A stretch of 64,000 nucleotides of DNA from a virus: the IMG/VR virus record IMGVR_UViG_3300020462_000001, positions 26,535 through 90,534 of that record. The stretch is one strand, 5' to 3'. Position numbers and translations under genes: made by a program. This document shows, piece by piece, positions 15,136-26,983 of the stretch. Below the pieces are notes generated by a model. It saw only the letters and a program-made list of their open reading frames with translations. It did not search any database and had not been told where the DNA came from. Position 1 is the stretch's first letter, and every line of letters starts with the position of its first letter.

Positions 15136-16508
15136 TAGAATTTAAATCCCTCAAATGATTTCTTAGGTTTATCATCGTTATTATACTCTTCGTCTTGTTT
15201 GTTGTCAAGAAGATCATCCTGTGCAGACTGTTCACAATCATACAGTCTCATCTTTGCTCTGTCAATACCAACAACAAACCTCTTACAAAGGTTTGCGTCA
15301 TTGTATCGATTCTTCAATTGCTTCACCAATATCTGTCCCAACTCTTCAAGCTCATCTGTTGAAATAAGGGCAAACATAAGATCAGCAGTAGCAGGGAGAC
15401 CAAAGGACTCAGAAGTATCAGTAAGCTCAACATCAGAGCTACCATAACCAGAACGAGTGGTCTGGGTGGCAGATACGACAGGTACGTTCGCTTCGACAGC
15501 GAGGCCTCGAAGTTCTTCAGCAATAGACTTGACAATTGTATATGAATTGACACTACCTCCACCGCGATACCGCGAGGAAGCACATATATTAAGGTAATCA
15601 ATGAAAATAATATCAGGTCTAAATGACTTCTTAAGTGCAAGCTCATTAAGAAGTGCCGAAAAATGTCCACTATGTGCACTCGCAGTTGGGTATTCTTTAA
15701 TGATAAGTGTGCCTTGAGTCTTCTGTGATAGATTGTTTACCTTTGTTTCAAAGGTTTGTTTAGGAAGTTCACCTATGTCCTGAATATTTACATTCAATAG
15801 ATTGGCATCAATCCTTTCTGCAATCTTCTCTTCTGCCATCTCCAAAGTAATATACAATACATTCTTACCAGAAAGAAGAACAGAAGAAGCCATATGACAC
15901 ATAAACAAAGACTTGCCGACACCAGTCCCAGCAAGGGCAATGTTAAGTGTTTTATTAGGTAACCCACCTTTTGTGATCTTATTGAAGTATTCCAGATCGA
16001 AAGGAATTCTATTCTCTTTCCTATGATAAGATTCGAATCTTTCTTCATAGTCTAAAAGGTAATCGTGTCCAACATGATTATCAAAACTAACTGCAAGTGC
16101 ATCAGAAAGAATGGCTGGAATAGCATCAGGGTTCTTGTCCTTACTCTGTCCATCAGCAATACCAATAGATTCAACCAAAGCCAGATAGATTGCTCTATCT
16201 CTACACCACTTCTCGGTAGTATTACATAACCACTCAAACTCAGCAGGTTCATCGTTTAAGTGACTGATAAGATGTGTAATTGATTTGAATTGTTGTTCAT
16301 TGATATCCTTTCGTTTACCAACTTCAATACTCAGAACTTCTTTTGTGGGTACATTGTTGTACTCATTAACAAAGTTTGAGATCTCATCGAATACAACCTT
16401 CTGGTCATTGTCTTCGAAGAAATCTTCTTGCAAAAAGGGGATAACCTTTCTAAGGTACTCTTCATTGTGAAGTAGATTACGAAGGATAAGAAACTCAATT
16501 TCATTCAT
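15135..16508 (-). CDS. gp41: replicative DNA helicase (T4 gp41)
   Basis: AGTGVGKS Walker A, TLEMAEE, DYLNI, SATQTTR, SESFGLPATAD, QLKNRY. Confidence 0.97.
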   Translation of the reverse strand: MNEIEFLILRNLLHNEEYLRKVIPFLQEDFFEDNDQKVVFDEISNFVNEYNNVPTKEVLSIEVGKRKDINEQQFKSITHLISHLNDEPAEFEWLCNTTEKWCRDRAIYLALVESIGIADGQSKDKNPDAIPAILSDALAVSFDNHVGHDYLLDYEERFESYHRKENRIPFDLEYFNKITKGGLPNKTLNIALAGTGVGKSLFMCHMASSVLLSGKNVLYITLEMAEEKIAERIDANLLNVNIQDIGELPKQTFETKVNNLSQKTQGTLIIKEYPTASAHSGHFSALLNELALKKSFRPDIIFIDYLNICASSRYRGGGSVNSYTIVKSIAEELRGLAVEANVPVVSATQTTRSGYGSSDVELTDTSESFGLPATADLMFALISTDELEELGQILVKQLKNRYNDANLCKRFVVGIDRAKMRLYDCEQSAQDDLLDNKQDEEYNNDDKPKKSFEGFKF

Positions 16509-17043
16509 AATGGACGTATGTACTCATAATATACTTCGTTTTGCTAGGTGCCAATCCAGCGTGAGGGTACTCCCACGTGGGAGGGAACACTAATACTTTA
16601 CCACATCTAGGCCGAATATACAACCCACTTTGAGTGAAGTGTGTATCTCCGTCATTATTATTCAAGTAGAAGAGAAAGGCCAAAGCTCTTCTAGCAGTAT
16701 CATATGATGCAACATCTACATGTTCATCAAACCTTTGTTCTCCACCTGGTTCATATCTTTTAATACGAAATTCTTCCAGAGACCTAAGCCTTGGAAGAAA
16801 CTTATTATTGACATCAGAAGCATACATTCCGTATGCTTTCTGAGTATATTTTATCAACAATTCTATTACTTCTGGTTGATGTTGATTTAAGTTGAGTTGA
16901 GTGAAGCATGGTGTGTAATCATTGTTGATATACTCATGTCCACTCTCTGTATTCTCAAATACATCTATCAGTGTTTCACAGAAATCCTTTGGGATAACAT
17001 CATACACTTGAACCATATGAGAATTGTTCTTTTGCAATTTCAT
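16501..17043 (-). CDS. 2OG-Fe(II) oxygenase
   Basis: HVD...LFYLN...FPP.W.YPH...KY; start likely at MVQVY. Confidence 0.88.
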   Translation of the reverse strand: MKLQKNNSHMVQVYDVIPKDFCETLIDVFENTESGHEYINNDYTPCFTQLNLNQHQPEVIELLIKYTQKAYGMYASDVNNKFLPRLRSLEEFRIKRYEPGGEQRFDEHVDVASYDTARRALAFLFYLNNNDGDTHFTQSGLYIRPRCGKVLVFPPTWEYPHAGLAPSKTKYIMSTYVHYE

Positions 17044-18010
17044 CTAACTTTTCTAATACTTCTTGAGTAAAATACGTTTCTGGATCTTTCAGAATAGCTT
17101 TAGCATAAACCTTCTTACCATCAAACTCATAACGACCGGCAACGTTCTTCCATAGTCCACCAAGTTCTCCTAACTCTAGGAGACCATAATACTTATCAAG
17201 GCCCCTTTCATCATAATAAAGACGAACCGTTACATCTTTGTTCTCTTTACTAAGTCTTGACTTTGCTGTTTTAACTTTGATAAGGTTTCCGACAACTTCT
17301 GTTCCATCCTTTTCCTTTTTCTTGCTGAGATAAAGGATCGTAGAAGCGGCATACTTGAGGCCACTGCCTCCTCCCATTTCCTTAGTAGGGACATAAGATC
17401 CGATGACATCGTAGGTGTGATTAGTAACAATCATTGGAATTTTAGCCTGTCCCAACTTCAGGGTTAACATCCTAAATGCACCTTTAACCAACTGAGATTT
17501 GGTCATGTCACGAACTTGTTTGTCGTTAAGTGCGTCAGAAATCTCTTTCTCTGTGGATAACATACCCAAAGAGTCTAAAACAAACATACAGGGTTTGCGA
17601 TCACTTTCAGGTGTCTTTAGATATATATCGACAGCCTGTAATGCCTTCTGTCGAAACTGCTCAATGGTTACAACATTAATAACAACTAATCTACTCAGGT
17701 CAATTCCACGACTCTCAAGAAGAGATTTGTTAACTGCGGCTTCAGTGTCAAAGTACAGACAGTAACCACCAGGATTACTATCCAGAAAATTCTTAACCAC
17801 AGCGAGACTAAAGAAAGTCTTGCCAGTAGAAGACTCACCAGCAATGGCAGTAATCTTATTCCCAGAACAACCACCAAATATACTACCTGACAGAAGTCCG
17901 TTAAGGATGAACGAACCTGAGTCCACGTAAGTTTCTGTTTCGTCGATATCTGATGCGAGTTGTGTGTATTCATCACCAATCTCTTTTACAATCTCTTTTA
18001 AAAAATCCAT
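17000..18010 (-). CDS. uvsX: RecA-like recombinase UvsX
   Basis: GESSTGKT, FDTE, LDSLGML, NHTY, MGGGSG. Confidence 0.96.
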   Translation of the reverse strand: MDFLKEIVKEIGDEYTQLASDIDETETYVDSGSFILNGLLSGSIFGGCSGNKITAIAGESSTGKTFFSLAVVKNFLDSNPGGYCLYFDTEAAVNKSLLESRGIDLSRLVVINVVTIEQFRQKALQAVDIYLKTPESDRKPCMFVLDSLGMLSTEKEISDALNDKQVRDMTKSQLVKGAFRMLTLKLGQAKIPMIVTNHTYDVIGSYVPTKEMGGGSGLKYAASTILYLSKKKEKDGTEVVGNLIKVKTAKSRLSKENKDVTVRLYYDERGLDKYYGLLELGELGGLWKNVAGRYEFDGKKVYAKAILKDPETYFTQEVLEKLDEIAKEQFSYGSSV

Positions 18011-18011
18011 A

Positions 18012-18149
18012 CTAATCAGTTATTTTTAATTTTTCCCAATAGGGAGTTTGACCTTTTGATGCTTTCATCATAGCAATATAAGTCATTACCTCTTCTATAG
18101 AAGAAAGTATTATGGGGGGTTTAATTGGTGAGTGCCAGAGTTTGTACAT
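18012..18149 (-). CDS. 45-aa hypothetical protein (not in ORF track)
   Basis: Manual translation MYKLWHSPIKPPIILSSIEEVMTYIAMMKASKGQTPYWEKLKITD; TAATG overlap with gp43B stop; fills the gap exactly. Confidence 0.55.
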   Translation of the reverse strand: MYKLWHSPIKPPIILSSIEEVMTYIAMMKASKGQTPYWEKLKITD

Positions 18150-19309
18150 TATCCGAAGAATAGTTCTAAATTTGCAACCTTTTCAACATTCCACCCAATA
18201 GAATCCAATACGACTTTTAAAGGTTCAAGGAAAGCCTTGTTAAATTGTAACTCATAATCAATATACTTGTGAAGACCAGTCTCATATGGAAAATCTGAAA
18301 TAAAACTAATCACATTCTCACGAATAGGATTAGCCTTCTTCAAATACACAAACTTGATCTTATCTCCATTCTGGATGGTAGTATACTTATTATCCAGTCC
18401 TTTCTCTTTCATATAATAATTATAAAGCAAAGCTCCTCTCACATGGATTGGACACCCTTTGCCATATATTGTTGAATGGTTCTTATGTTTATTTACATCA
18501 GAAATAGAACGGGGAAATGAGAGCTCTTCTGGAGAAAGGTTATTGAATTTAGTTCTAGCATTATCAATAAACCTAATCATCTCATCTTCTGTTCCCTTCA
18601 TCATCAACTTAAGGGCATCCTTAATCATAGTTCTACAAGGTGCAGGTGTTGATGACTTAACAGCTTCAATACCCATGATCTTGAGTTTGGGTTCCTCATA
18701 ACGAACACCCTCACTATCCCACACATTGAGGATGTATCTCTTCTTTGCTGTCCAGATTCCACGGTCAGCGATATTCTCTCGCTTCATCTGCATCTTCTGA
18801 TCATATGCGTTTACATAATCAGCCAGTTCCACATAACACTTATCGATGAAGGGTTCTAGTTGATCCTGACACACTTTATCAAGTAGATTTACAACCTTCT
18901 CTTTATCATCCTTCTGTTTAGATAAAAACTTATCTACCAAAGGTCCGAGGTTTAGATATACAGAATCAGTATCAACAGCAATCACATAATCTTTATCTGT
19001 TTTGAGGAGATCATTCAGATACTTATTGAGTTTATTCTCAATCCATCGAATAGAGGTTTGACCAGATAGTGTAATAGCTTCTGCATTTGCCAACTTATAG
19101 TATCGAAACCATTGATTACCAATGGCACCATAAGCTGAGTTCAAACAAATCTTTCTCACCATCTGGAAGTTGTTAAACTTGGCAATATCTTTTACAGTTT
19201 GGTCTCTAAGTTTTAAGAGTTGACTATCACTGAGTTTAGAATAGTCTTTATCAGATTGTATAATCTCCTCTTCTGGTCCCTCTCCAGCACCACCAATCAG
19301 ATAACCCAT
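18149..19309 (-). CDS. gp43B: DNA polymerase gp43, C-terminal subunit (fingers helix, palm motifs B and C, thumb)
   Basis: KICLNSAYGAIGN (motif B), VDTDSVY (motif C), AKKRY, KIMGIEAVKSSTP, C-terminal clamp-binding-like LELFFG; SD AGAGG. Confidence 0.95.
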   Translation of the reverse strand: MGYLIGGAGEGPEEEIIQSDKDYSKLSDSQLLKLRDQTVKDIAKFNNFQMVRKICLNSAYGAIGNQWFRYYKLANAEAITLSGQTSIRWIENKLNKYLNDLLKTDKDYVIAVDTDSVYLNLGPLVDKFLSKQKDDKEKVVNLLDKVCQDQLEPFIDKCYVELADYVNAYDQKMQMKRENIADRGIWTAKKRYILNVWDSEGVRYEEPKLKIMGIEAVKSSTPAPCRTMIKDALKLMMKGTEDEMIRFIDNARTKFNNLSPEELSFPRSISDVNKHKNHSTIYGKGCPIHVRGALLYNYYMKEKGLDNKYTTIQNGDKIKFVYLKKANPIRENVISFISDFPYETGLHKYIDYELQFNKAFLEPLKVVLDSIGWNVEKVANLELFFG

Positions 19310-19455
19310 TACTTACAAACCTCTTTTGAGTAGTTTACACCAATTCTATTTCCATAGTAGATAAAACAGTCAGTGTCCACACTGTCCTCCACCTTACTTG
19401 AACACCCAGCCATTAAAAGAATAACCAATACTATGTAACCTTTCCAATAACCCAT
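19309..19455 (-). CDS. 48-aa putative lipoprotein (not in ORF track)
   Basis: MGYWKGYIVLVILLMAG-CSSKVEDSVDTDCFIYYGNRIGVNYSKEVCK: hydrophobic core and MAGC lipobox-like site; GAGG before ATG; TAATG overlap with gp43B start. Confidence 0.65.
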   Translation of the reverse strand: MGYWKGYIVLVILLMAGCSSKVEDSVDTDCFIYYGNRIGVNYSKEVCK

Positions 19456-20360
19456 GACCTCATACCATGTGGTACATCTGAAATAATTTCTTGAGTCAAT
19501 ATAGCTGCATCTTTTGGAACAACCACACAGAATCCAATACCTAGATTGAATACATTACGCATCTCTTCCTCAGCAATGTCTCCTGCTTCTTGAATCTTAT
19601 TGAAGAGTTCTGGTCTCAACCAAGAGTCATAATCTACATCAACTGTCAAACCCTTAGGAAGACACCTAGGAAGGTTCTCAGGGATACCACCACCTGTGAT
19701 GTGAGACATACCTAAGATAGGAACCACATCTAACAAGTCCTTAACAAGAGGAGCATAGATTGTAGTTGGTACTAACAACTCTGGCATCTCTTTATAGTAA
19801 ATGTAATTTCTCCACAACATATCATTGACCAGTGTATATCCATTACTATGAAGACCACTACTCTCAATACCAATGACTAAATCACCTGCTCTGATACTTC
19901 TACCATCAACAATATCAAACTTCTCTACAATACCAGTACAGAAACCAGCAAGGTCATAGTCAGTTGCTCTAAAATGTTCAGCAGTCTCACCACCTAGGAG
20001 TTGCATATCTGCAATCCTACAACCCTCAGCAACTCCATGGATAATATCACTTACATTAGCATCAAGTGTTTTAGTAGAGATATAGTCTAGAAAATATAAT
20101 GGTTTAGCGCCAGAACATATAACATCATTGACGCACATAGCAACAAGATCTTGACCGATAGTGGTGTAATCATTAGCAATCCTACAGATATTGATCTTAG
20201 TTCCAACACCATCAGCACCAGACACTAGTACAGGTCTTTCATATCCTGACGGTACTTCCATCATTCCATTAAACCCACCAACACTAGGTGATAATGTTTT
20301 GATATACTCTACAAAGGATCGTCCCTTCTGAATGTCAACACCAGATGTCTTATAGTCCAT
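19431..20360 (-). CDS. purM: phosphoribosylformylglycinamidine cyclo-ligase (AIR synthetase)
   Basis: MDYKTSGVDI, DGVGTK, DLVAMCVND, GAKPLYFLDY, LLGGETAE, SSGLHSNGY, HITGGG, VFNLGIG. Confidence 0.97.
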   Translation of the reverse strand: MDYKTSGVDIQKGRSFVEYIKTLSPSVGGFNGMMEVPSGYERPVLVSGADGVGTKINICRIANDYTTIGQDLVAMCVNDVICSGAKPLYFLDYISTKTLDANVSDIIHGVAEGCRIADMQLLGGETAEHFRATDYDLAGFCTGIVEKFDIVDGRSIRAGDLVIGIESSGLHSNGYTLVNDMLWRNYIYYKEMPELLVPTTIYAPLVKDLLDVVPILGMSHITGGGIPENLPRCLPKGLTVDVDYDSWLRPELFNKIQEAGDIAEEEMRNVFNLGIGFCVVVPKDAAILTQEIISDVPHGMRSWVIGKVT

Positions 20361-20613
20361 TTTTAATCTTCTCCAATTGTTCTAGTTTCCATATGATATA
20401 GTCAATCGTTGGAATACACTGAGGATTCCATCCAACAAACCCATATGTTTGTTCACTAGGCATCTTCCAACATTCAGCATCATCATTCTCAAGATCTAAT
20501 GACTTACGATACTCTTCCTCACCAAACATAACAACTGCTCGTTCTGCTTGGTTCAAACTCTTGAAACAATCAAAAGAATTTCTTCTAATGATTTCAGGGA
20601 TTTTGTGTTTCAT
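20350..20613 (-). CDS. hypothetical protein
   Basis: ORF track 87 aa; overlaps purM start and upstream stop. Confidence 0.75.
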   Translation of the reverse strand: MKHKIPEIIRRNSFDCFKSLNQAERAVVMFGEEEYRKSLDLENDDAECWKMPSEQTYGFVGWNPQCIPTIDYIIWKLEQLEKIKNGL

Positions 20614-20786
20614 TTTCCAAATAGTATACTACAAACTACATACAATCCCATTGCAGACCAGTATCCTAAGGTTGTCAATCCAAAAATACCTGGTATTACA
20701 GCATTCCATACTAACATAACAATTAGAGGACTTACAAATAATTTTATCAGTATTTTACATAATGATTCTTTTTGTTTAGGGTTCAT
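20610..20786 (-). CDS. 58-aa two-helix membrane protein (not in ORF track)
   Basis: MNPKQKESLCKILIKLFVSPLIVMLVWNAVIPGIFGLTTLGYWSAMGLYVVCSILFGK; ATGA overlaps at both ends. Confidence 0.75.
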   Translation of the reverse strand: MNPKQKESLCKILIKLFVSPLIVMLVWNAVIPGIFGLTTLGYWSAMGLYVVCSILFGK

Positions 20787-22243
20787 AGTCCTCTCCTCTT
20801 CATCTCACCTTCAATATCAACTAACTTTTGTTTACTCTTCAACATCTCACCTTTGAATGCCTTACGTTCTGCATACATCTTCTCCATCAATTCAGGAAGG
20901 AAACCTTTAACATCCTTACGGAACATAGCTCCGTTAGCACATACTGCATAATCATTATACATCTCAAAGGTGAGTTTCTCATTAAGAATCTTATCGACAG
21001 TAACTGATGGATGTTTCTCTTCCAAAAGAGTTTCAGGTGAGATGTTGTATTGCATCATCAGGTGAGGATACAGAGAGTTAAGGTCAAAAGATACAACCCA
21101 ATCATATACACCAGGAACAGGTTCTTTAACATAAGCTCCAGCAAACTTCTCATCCTTAGCAGATGTTTGTTTCTGAGGAATTACAATATTCCTCTTCTTC
21201 AGATAGTTATAGATGATCGTATCCCACAACTTTACTTGACCCATAGGATCAACAAAGTTCACTTTGGCATCAAATGCCATAGTAATAACCAGTTCAATCA
21301 AACGGAGTTTGTCCTCCATCCTATCAACAAGTTCCACGTCAACGATGTTGTAATCTACAAACTTCTTCCAGTTACCATCATAGAACTCTTTGAAGGTATT
21401 GAACTCTGAGTGGTCCAACTTCTTCTGTCCAAGTTCTACCTCAGCAATAAAGTCCAGTTTATAGCTCTCCCTATTCACATAAGTAAATTTCTTATAAAGT
21501 TCCAGAAAATCCAAAACAGTCACACCAGCCATGGTATAAACATTGTTTGGACGACCATGAATAAACACCTCATCATGAGACACAATGCCCCAAGGAGAGA
21601 ACCTCCTCACATTTCTGTCTCCCATGATACGAGACACACGGCCAAGAAGATAAGGGATATCATAGAAACGACAGTTCCACCCTGTCACAACCTCAGGAGG
21701 ATCTGTAGACCACCAATGGATGAATGCATTCAACATATCAATCTCATCTTCATAATGATGATATGTCACATTCTTTTGAGTAGGTGTATATGGTTTCCTA
21801 CCCCAAGTAATGATGTTTTTGGTTGTGTAATCTTGAATGGAGATGGTCAACATCTCCTCGGCACAAGAATCAGGTGAAGGGAATCCATCTTCTGACTTCA
21901 CCTCAATATCAATAGTGACCAGTTTGATCTTCTTAATATCCCATTTGATTTCATTTTGGGGATACTTTTCAGAGATATATTGGTAGAGATACTTCTCATT
22001 ACCATAGATCTTGAAACCATCTACACCTTCGTACTTCTTATAGAACTCTCTACAATCTCTTACATTTCCAGGTTGAATAGGTTCAACATTCTCACCTTCG
22101 AGTGTTTTCCACTCACTTTCTTTCTTGGATTTCACATACAGAGTAGGGAAAAACTCTTCCTTATACTGAACACGTCGTCCATTCTCATAACCACGAACCA
22201 GGAACTCATTCCTGACCATTTGAATGTTGGTGTAAAAATCCAA
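20783..22243 (-). CDS. gp43A: DNA polymerase gp43, N-terminal subunit (N domain, 3'-5' exonuclease, palm motif A, first fingers helix)
   Basis: ExoI DIEV, ExoII GWNCRFYDIPYL, ExoIII YNIVD, GAYVKEP, motif A SFDLNSLYP; ends EMKRRGL-stop; TTG start after AAGGAG. Confidence 0.95.
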   Translation of the reverse strand: MDFYTNIQMVRNEFLVRGYENGRRVQYKEEFFPTLYVKSKKESEWKTLEGENVEPIQPGNVRDCREFYKKYEGVDGFKIYGNEKYLYQYISEKYPQNEIKWDIKKIKLVTIDIEVKSEDGFPSPDSCAEEMLTISIQDYTTKNIITWGRKPYTPTQKNVTYHHYEDEIDMLNAFIHWWSTDPPEVVTGWNCRFYDIPYLLGRVSRIMGDRNVRRFSPWGIVSHDEVFIHGRPNNVYTMAGVTVLDFLELYKKFTYVNRESYKLDFIAEVELGQKKLDHSEFNTFKEFYDGNWKKFVDYNIVDVELVDRMEDKLRLIELVITMAFDAKVNFVDPMGQVKLWDTIIYNYLKKRNIVIPQKQTSAKDEKFAGAYVKEPVPGVYDWVVSFDLNSLYPHLMMQYNISPETLLEEKHPSVTVDKILNEKLTFEMYNDYAVCANGAMFRKDVKGFLPELMEKMYAERKAFKGEMLKSKQKLVDIEGEMKRRGL

Positions 22244-22245
22244 GA

Positions 22246-22500
22246 TTACTCCTTCACCAGGTCTGTGTACTTGTCTACCAGTGTACCATTAGGTTCCACA
22301 ATAGTCAAGATCTTATCTGAGTGGATCATAAAGGTATTTTGATTGGTAATATTAACCAACCAAGGTGATAAGGTTTGGTTATCATTGACAACAAAGGGTT
22401 CTGTCAGTTTACAATCTGCTTCACCCATATCTCCACCAATCTCTTCAATCTGAGTCAACAGATTCAGGTTGTTCGTCAGTACTAGTAGCTTCGGCTTCAT
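22246..22500 (-). CDS. small beta-rich conserved protein (Sm/SH3-like)
   Basis: KLLVL...L..PF...L.PW...ILTIVEP pattern. Confidence 0.7.
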   Translation of the reverse strand: MKPKLLVLTNNLNLLTQIEEIGGDMGEADCKLTEPFVVNDNQTLSPWLVNITNQNTFMIHSDKILTIVEPNGTLVDKYTDLVKE

Positions 22501-26288: not shown

Positions 26289-26983
26289 ACGAACTGCCTT
26301 AACTTAGTTAGTATAATTTTATATGCCTCCACTATATCACCTTCTCCTTTACGGAACAAGTCCTTATCGAACCTTTCTCCTTTCCCTTTACTCCATAACC
26401 TCATGTTATCTGGTGAAAGTTCATCAGCCAGATAGAGATCACCATGAGCATCATATCCAAACTCAAGTTTAAAATCAACCAAATCAATACCACACATCAA
26501 GAAGAGTTGTTGTAATAACACATTGATATCTAATGTTTTTTCAATCAATGGTTGTGTATTGATACCCATCAACCTCACACGATCTGGTGTAAGGAGTGGA
26601 TCATTCTTTGTATCATCCTTGAGAAAGAACTCAACAATAGGTGGTTGGATAACCATACCTTCATTGAGATTGGTGGTCCTTACGATAGAACCAGCTGCGA
26701 TATTCCTACAGATAACTTCTACAGGAACAATCTCAAGTTTCTTGCACTTCATAGTATTCAATGAAGGGCAATCAATGAAGTGAGTTCTGATTGAGTTACT
26801 TTCCAGATACTCAAACAACATTGCTGACATAAGACAACAGATCGTACCCTTTCCTTTTGGGTAATCAATCATCTGTCCGTTTCCAGCAGTCACGCAATCT
26901 TCATACTGAACCAATACCTCTTGAGGTTCATTAGTTGCATAGAGTGTTTTTACTTTTCCTTTTAAAATTTCAGTCATACCCAT
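26285..26983 (-). CDS. purC: SAICAR synthetase
   Basis: GKVKTLY, TAGNG, PVEVICRNIAAGS, KDD.KNDP, VDFKLEFG, ADELSPDNMRLW, DKDLFR. Confidence 0.96.
   Translation of the reverse strand: MGMTEILKGKVKTLYATNEPQEVLVQYEDCVTAGNGQMIDYPKGKGTICCLMSAMLFEYLESNSIRTHFIDCPSLNTMKCKKLEIVPVEVICRNIAAGSIVRTTNLNEGMVIQPPIVEFFLKDDTKNDPLLTPDRVRLMGINTQPLIEKTLDINVLLQQLFLMCGIDLVDFKLEFGYDAHGDLYLADELSPDNMRLWSKGKGERFDKDLFRKGEGDIVEAYKIILTKLRQFV

Follow-up and report, generated by a model that had tools for sequence, protein, structure and literature searches.

In T4-like phages of Aeromonas, the DNA polymerase gene gp43 has been described as “broken into two genes” in work of Petrov, Karam and co-workers, of which PMC2677866 gives a summary. 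The same source also cites the split family-B DNA polymerase (PolB) of Methanothermobacter thermautotrophicus (Kelman et al. 1999) and the split-intein PolB of Nanoarchaeum equitans (Choi et al. 2006), the halves of which are rejoined by trans-splicing. A further essential enzyme that is made from two genes and still works, with foreign DNA in the gap, is known from nrdA-a/mobE/nrdA-b of Aeromonas phage Aeh1 (Dassa et al. 2009, PMC2677866). Here, we analyzed a stretch of 64,000 nucleotides (nt), referred to as the window (IMG/VR virus record IMGVR_UViG_3300020462_000001, positions 26,535 to 90,534), in which gp43 is present as two genes, gp43A and gp43B, separated by the purine-synthesis gene purM and three small genes. 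This arrangement is a bipartite T4-type gp43, a kind that Aeromonas phages were known to have; it is common in ocean cyanophages and present in public annotation. We are confident that the two genes represent a functional gp43 of a marine T4-like cyanophage, divided at the tip of the fingers and carrying cargo in the break, with the two products predicted to assemble.

Results

Anatomy of the two polymerase genes

The two genes are encoded as follows (lengths in amino acids, aa):

gp43A, 22243..20783, minus strand: 486 aa; N-terminal domain, 3'-5' exonuclease with Exo I-III, palm motif A and first fingers helix
gp43B, 19309..18149, minus strand: 386 aa; MGYLIGG head, second fingers helix with motif B, palm motif C and thumb

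Re-reading of the open reading frames (ORFs) gave the same coordinates, two intact frames and the same distance of 1473 nt as the initial annotation. gp43A, which ends with ...GEMKRRGL, contains Exo I (TIDIEV), Exo II (NCRFYD), Exo III (YNIVD) and motif A (SFDLNSLYP); gp43B, which starts with MGYLIGGAGEG, contains motifs B (KICLNSAYG) and C (DTDS). The claimed distribution of exonuclease and motif A on one chain and of motifs B and C and the thumb on the other was also borne out by Pfam family PF00136, the profile of which is split into two exactly complementary parts (positions 16-144 on gp43A, 144-452 on gp43B), and gp43A additionally matches PF03104. Both halves matched the structures of T4/RB69 gp43 (E 1e-64 to 1e-72), and in T4 numbering gp43A extends to about residue 490 and gp43B begins at about residue 527, that is, at the fingers tip. 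Compared with gp43 of Synechococcus phage RN05-S, a single chain of 845 aa, gp43A aligned up to about residue 484 of its 486 and gp43B from residue 28 onwards, leaving about 27 extra residues at the N-terminus. The proposed start signals were recovered as well, with AAGGAG before the TTG start codon of gp43A and GAGG, at a spacer of 10 nt, before the ATG of gp43B.

Function of both halves

In comparison with four relatives, the ratio of nonsynonymous to synonymous substitution rates (dN/dS) was 0.08-0.09 for gp43A and 0.03-0.06 for gp43B, with dS being saturated, and the first 40 codons of gp43B were also constrained, as seen from their low dN/dS. These values indicate strong purifying selection on both halves. 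Among 28 diverged split forms, the head of gp43B (M1-G7) was invariant, as were K482 and R484 in the tail of gp43A, with G485 nearly so. A second PolB was found neither in the contig from which the window derives (90.5 kb, estimated to be ~44% complete) nor in ACG-2014f_Syn7803C8, a complete genome of 223 kb with the same split, in which the two halves are the only PolB; within these sequences, an intact gp43 elsewhere, which the initial annotation named as a refuting finding, was not present. If the two ORFs were decaying remnants, replication would have to be carried out by an intact gp43 elsewhere or by a host enzyme. The limited completeness of the contig would leave space for such a gene, and 1.47 kb inserted into an essential gene would at first seem disruptive. 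This reading is opposed by the low dN/dS of 0.03-0.09 at saturated dS in both halves, the full set of intact catalytic motifs, the retention of the split in dozens of diverged lineages, and the complete ACG-2014f genome with the two halves as its sole PolB, so that we give decay hardly any credence.

The aspartates of motif A and motif C together make one PolB active site. With motif A on gp43A and motif C on gp43B, neither half can polymerize alone. Two functional proteins that do not form one enzyme, for example gp43A as a stand-alone proofreading exonuclease and gp43B acting with another partner, would agree with the poor folding of gp43B alone; but the two catalytic aspartates of a single site are divided between the halves, and the halves are always adjacent or nearly adjacent and, wherever a contig extends far enough, both are present at the split locus, which makes separate roles highly unlikely. 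As regards the bipartite enzyme, gp43A and gp43B would assemble non-covalently into one active polymerase, presumably through antiparallel fingers helices and a shared palm, and the invariant MGYLIGG head of gp43B and the ...KRRGL tail of gp43A would be additions specific to the split form. Pairing of helical extensions at the break, as proposed in the initial annotation, would be a plausible mechanism.

Some points weigh against a functional bipartite gp43. The 10-nt spacer between GAGG and the start of gp43B exceeds the optimum, the estimated completeness leaves room for a second polymerase elsewhere in this genome, and the gp43 trees described below may be skewed by the very intragenic recombination that they suggest. 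Moreover, gp43B folded alone gave a low-confidence model (mean predicted local distance difference test score, pLDDT, of 57), which was not used as evidence; in this model, head residues 1-27 (MGYLIGG...) were unstructured and the first helix began at residue 28.

Inteins, introns and recoding

Group I introns, inteins and homing endonucleases occur in phage replication genes, and Aeromonas phage 25 reportedly (Petrov et al., 2010) has a homing endonuclease gene of the GIY-YIG type as well as, in 43B, a group I intron. The halves could in principle be rejoined in one chain by RNA splicing, protein splicing, ribosomal frameshifting or bypassing; in insert-free relatives, the frame of gp43B is -1 relative to that of gp43A, which would be in line with such a process. 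However, an intein domain was not detected in the Pfam search of the window proteins, and neither end carries the parts of a split intein (N-intein of ~100 aa, C-intein of ~35 aa ending with HN + C/S/T), the ~27 extra residues of gp43B containing no HN+C/S/T. With gp43A aligning with single-chain gp43 nearly to its last residue and gp43B from residue 28, there is no spare length for an intein, and the initial annotation was right in excluding one. Rfam cmscan of 17900-22500 returned 0 matches at E<=1, and Rfam revealed no intron in seven related loci. Furthermore, the gap is occupied by a chain of four conserved coding genes, and the insert-free relatives have their own gp43A stop and their own gp43B start with a ribosome-binding site; to our knowledge, there is no precedent for bypassing 1473 nt. 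Altogether, we regard rejoining as extremely improbable. Frameshifting in the insert-free relatives was rejected on account of the same stop, start and ribosome-binding site, and at the one junction examined (L005; L numbers denote related loci) a stop codon closes the -1 frame two codons ahead of the ATG.

Genes in the gap

Between gp43A and gp43B, four genes were identified:

o58, 20786..20610, minus strand: 58 aa, hydrophobic; PHROG 705, with a weaker match to a “membrane protein” PHROG; first gene of the cassette
o87, 20613..20350, minus strand: 87 aa; PHROG 1132, no assigned function
purM, 20360..19431, minus strand: aminoimidazole ribonucleotide (AIR) synthase, 309 aa; auxiliary purine-synthesis gene
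o48, 19455..19309, minus strand: 48 aa; signal-peptide/lipobox-like start (LLMAGC)

The assignment of purM is based on a full-length ORF with both AIR synthase domains over the Pfam cut-off (PF00586, AIRS, 77.6 bits; PF02769, AIRS_C, 82.1 bits), a length matching that of cyanophage homologues, and 80-90% amino acid identity to purM of other cyanophage contigs. No family match was obtained for o48 in Pfam or PHROG, and none of o58, o87 and o48 matched a nuclease family in these databases, which leaves the gap of the window without an endonuclease gene. From gp43A to gp43B, the genes form an unbroken chain of overlaps: ATGA at gp43A/o58, combining the TGA stop of gp43A with the ATG of o58, 4 nt at o58/o87, 11 nt at o87/purM, 25 nt at purM/o48, and TAATG at o48/gp43B, combining the TAA stop of o48 with the ATG of gp43B, the GAGG before gp43B being supplied by the 3' end of o48.

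The three small genes of 58, 87 and 48 aa are present as initially annotated; two of them, however, are not simply small genes beside purM, as o58 and o87 belong to a conserved o58-o87-purM cassette found elsewhere in cyanomyoviruses. Other contigs have o58 next to purM with the order retained, and o87 lies directly upstream of purM at most of the cyanomyovirus purM loci that were fetched. Among the 80 best IMG/VR purM loci, o87-purM, often with o58 ahead, was either at a distance from gp43 or preceded a single-chain gp43 by a few hundred bases; the same was seen in L059, L063, L068 and L074. o58-o87-purM is a conserved module that existed before, and not a random set of genes.

The last codons of o48 together with the start of gp43B (window 19309-19330, AAAGAGGTTTGTAAGTAATG) resemble the 3' end of gp43A of insert-free relatives (AAGAGGGGTTTGTAATG; L011:4905-4924). 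This likeness suggests that the cargo may have entered upstream of a retained ribosome-binding site, or copy of the A tail.

As to transcription, sigma-70-like promoter matches in the region were no more frequent than in shuffled sequence, terminator-like hairpins were weak ones only, and no T4-type late promoter (TATAAATA) was found within 18000-22400. The sequencing runs listed for the stretch included no RNA run, and its words were next to absent from metatranscriptomes of the same samples. Because all the genes are chained by overlapping stops and starts, purM would probably be co-transcribed and translationally coupled with the replication genes.

Assembly

With purM being a conserved cyanophage gene, a metagenome assembler might have placed it and its neighbors inside gp43 by mistake. 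This stretch or a part of it was present in twenty public marine runs, and Logan contigs were compared from four runs, none of which belongs to the study that is the probable source. One contig spans 18000-19515 (o45, gp43B, o48 and the 3' end of purM) and a second one 20305-22400 (5' end of purM, o87, o58, gp43A and beyond), each with 0-1 mismatches, whereas the interior of purM was covered by short overlapping unitigs, which is a point in favor of a chimera. Nevertheless, as a check of the assembly, for which the initial annotation had asked, both gp43/gap junctions are bridged at 99% identity or more by these contigs of other studies, and the contigs and unitigs of the four runs showed no alternative joint. 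In addition, independent diverged contigs repeat the layout, with gp43A-o87-purM...gp43B in L166, L054 and L173 and gp43A-purM-gp43B in L010 and L181. The probability of a chimera is, in our view, very small.

Frequency of the split and cargo in relatives

For a survey of relatives, the 80 best IMG/VR loci and the 80 best JGI/ENA metagenome loci were collected, a set that is biased to relatives of this gp43B and contains some duplicates. Both halves were readable in 148 loci, of which 53 were split and 95 single-chain. About half of the split loci (28 of 53) carry no insert; here, the stop of gp43A overlaps the start of gp43B, in nearly all cases as TAATG (...AAG TAATGGGT). In the remaining split loci, the gap ranges from 77 to 1942 nt. 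The codons AAG AGG GG. of the A tail of insert-free relatives are at the same time the Shine-Dalgarno sequence of gp43B, and this double use may explain the conservation of the K(R/K)RG tail.

A protein search (212-676 aa) yielded more than 100 clusters of 386-aa proteins with 84-96% identity from ENA, JGI, NCBI, Tara and Logan. Of 50,697 phage records, only the 45 of ACG-2014f (Atlauavirus) contained the GYLIGG head, and these 45 GenBank/RefSeq records annotate two “gp43 DNA polymerase” coding sequences (CDS). The initial annotation, which gave known cyanophage gp43 proteins as single chains, overstated the novelty of the split, given the split in 53 of 148 marine loci and the two annotated CDS of ACG-2014f. 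Our literature search revealed no paper on split gp43 in Kyanoviridae or on purM between gp43 halves.

The cargo of the gap varies considerably, but its ORFs belong to families that recur. purM is present in the window, L010, L181, L054 and L166, being directly followed by PurS in L054 and L166 (PF02700, E 2.5e-17). A thioredoxin-like protein is encoded in L014, a 153-aa protein of the HNH endonuclease family in L006 and L035 (PHROG 374, E 1e-56), and small ORFs of other loci belong to PHROGs 2067, 3538, 1286 and 3571. ORFs similar to o48 lie directly upstream of gp43B in L054, L169, L171 and L172. Even the immediate clade of the window (Shimodaira-Hasegawa-like approximate likelihood ratio test, SH-aLRT, 99) differs in cargo, with o58-o87-purM-o48 in the window, o87-purM-purS in L166 and only an o48-like ORF in L169. 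That the break point serves as an insertion site, as proposed in the initial annotation, is well supported by close relatives which hold nothing, small ORFs, purM, purM and purS, a thioredoxin-like gene or an HNH-family gene at this position.

Regarding the start of gp43B, codon 1 is ATT in L085:6001 (ACG-2014f), L006:4734, L035:2361, L166:5001 and L178:5001. These five lineages have GGAGG or GAGG 5-6 nt upstream and no usable ATG, GTG or TTG further upstream, which suggests that gp43B is initiated at AUU in them. If so, gp43B of ACG-2014f in RefSeq (YP_009778610.1) starts 50 codons late. The GYLIGG head is left unannotated in many ACG-2014f records.

Deviating forms of the split were also noticed. 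L021:2064-2228 and L187 show a variant without the MGYLIGG head, in which gp43B begins with MTKDLSNLSD. In L071:3023-3725 and L082, the A tail reads ...KKRKIDLNTL and is followed by a gap of 638 nt without a clear same-strand ORF and by a B start of M(G/E)(L/I)DYSKIS. A second, different gp43 split was observed in L049:5086-5659 and also in L050, L053 and L222, with a shorter gap in L043. In this type, the first ORF ends just past motif A (...SISPETLVEKHELNNRIAELEKML*) and is followed by a 188-aa ORF with an HNH motif (HEVDHIIP...N); the second gp43 ORF has a novel head of ~75 aa and resumes before the fingers, and no Rfam intron match was obtained.

Evolution of the split

At the fingers tip, three alleles could be distinguished, namely a short single-chain form (...KQEYEKTPTK.LEKEIARCNNIQ), a medium single-chain form (...KLVDIESKLKTNKDPV...) and the long split form. 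In a maximum-likelihood tree of 52 gp43 backbones, from which the junction columns had been removed, split and single-chain forms were interleaved, with 10 changes on the tree, at least 8 of them forced by well-supported branches. A single split clade was rejected by the approximately unbiased (AU) test (difference in log-likelihood 953, p 2e-46); the tested group was defined after the tree had been seen, and the margin is very large. Because head and tail are homologous in all split forms, it is unlikely that the gene was split independently many times; a recombinational exchange of the tip module, or fusion on several occasions, would fit better.

Three nearly identical backbones differ in their gap: L006 carries the HNH-family gene, L178 has the ATT start in common with it but only a remnant of 77 nt, and L007 lacks an insert. 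This looks like gain and loss of the endonuclease gene, and homing might drive the spread of the split. More tentatively, the fingers tip could be a target of mobile DNA, at which the split allele would spread laterally, between gp43 backbones that are not otherwise related, by endonuclease-assisted or plain homologous exchange, and the intercistronic landing pad would recruit auxiliary metabolic genes such as purM and purS to the replication operon; we consider this possible, but rather doubtful. If it is true, the interior of an essential gene would be a hot spot for the acquisition of host genes.

Genomic neighborhood

Between 15 and 24.5 kb of the window, every gene is located on the minus strand, the order being hsp20, two small ORFs, gp43A, the cassette, gp43B, o45, uvsX, a 180-aa ORF and the gp41 helicase gene. 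gp43A is upstream of gp43B, and both belong to the replication gene cluster. The downstream context comprises:

o45 and uvsX, 17000..18149, minus strand: o45 belongs to PHROG 3371; usual gp43-uvsX-gp41 order of T4-like cyanophages

The 180-aa ORF (16501-17043) fills the interval between uvsX and the gp41 helicase gene and overlaps uvsX by 44 nt. At its position, ACG-2014f has an ORF annotated as 2-oxoglutarate (2OG)-Fe(II) oxygenase, and an arrangement of this type beside cyanophage gp41 is shown in PMC2677866.

Two further observations concern the replication region of relatives. In L055:8417-9343, on a 92-kb IMG/VR contig, uvsX is broken by ~925 nt, the tblastn pieces corresponding to residues 1-215 and 172-336; the extra sequence might represent an intron, an intein or an inserted endonuclease gene. 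L085:11673-12031 (ACG-2014f) contains a manA RNA motif (RF01745, 90 bits) between two tRNA genes, downstream of mazG.

Discussion

The window probably derives from an uncultured marine T4-like cyanophage (Kyanoviridae-like), the only detected family-B replicative polymerase of which would be made as two polypeptides. The point between the two cistrons has become a landing site for other genes, here for the o58-o87-purM cassette and o48. As the split allele is common to many gp43 backbones, we infer that co-infecting cyanophages most likely pass the fingers-tip module to one another by homologous exchange, perhaps aided by the HNH-family nuclease genes in the gap of some lineages.

These findings are of practical relevance, since g43 serves as a standard marker of T4-like phages in phylogeny and PCR: a frequent split that carries up to 2 kb of cargo can break amplicons, and recombination of the fingers-tip module can make g43 trees misleading. 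In annotation pipelines, too, errors arise, as these miscall the second half, as in RefSeq for gp43B of ACG-2014f, the real start of which is apparently ATT. The location of purM, and of purS in relatives, inside the polymerase operon would link purine supply to the expression of replication genes and provides an example of the positioning of auxiliary metabolic genes. Furthermore, a natural break with an invariant MGYLIGG head marks a tolerated split site in a PolB that has been studied well, which may be of use in enzyme engineering. The known principle, that T4-type gp43 can work as two chains, remains unchanged.

Comparison with known systems

The Aeromonas salmonicida phage 44RR2.8t likewise encodes its T4-type PolB by two same-strand cistrons without an intein, and its record annotates 43 and 43B as “split gene”. 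In a MAFFT alignment of the joined halves, the break of the window (column 504) lies within two columns of that of 44RR2.8t (column 506), so that the parallel to the Aeromonas 43A/43B break at the fingers tip, drawn in the initial annotation, proved correct. The flanks of the break and the B heads differ, reading ...ASRGVKLDH and then MELELF... in 44RR2.8t, and ...MKRRGL and then MGYLIGG... in the window. While the two cistrons of 44RR2.8t are separated by a 49-nt untranslated spacer, the window has the metabolic cassette o58-o87-purM-o48, in which stop and start codons overlap from gene to gene. The phages also differ in host group, 44RR2.8t being a member of the Straboviridae of Aeromonas and the window belonging to a marine cyanomyovirus. 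According to Petrov, Karam and co-workers, gp43A/gp43B is said to be present in Aeromonas phages 25 and 31, too.

Synechococcus phage ACG-2014f (Atlauavirus, Kyanoviridae) shows the same split as the window, with the GYLIGG head and the ...MKRRG tail, and its proteins are 63-71% identical to those of the window. Its gap, however, comprises 377 nt with two small ORFs and no purM, and its gp43B apparently starts with ATT instead of ATG. In comparison with the nrdA/mobE type of Aeh1, in which an endonuclease gene occupies the gap, the window has a metabolic cassette and neither an endonuclease gene nor a split intein, while its relatives L006 and L035 resemble Aeh1 in having an HNH-family gene in the gp43 gap. 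M. thermautotrophicus and N. equitans also have a family-B polymerase encoded by two genes, but these are archaeal, with other break points, and the two genes are unlinked.

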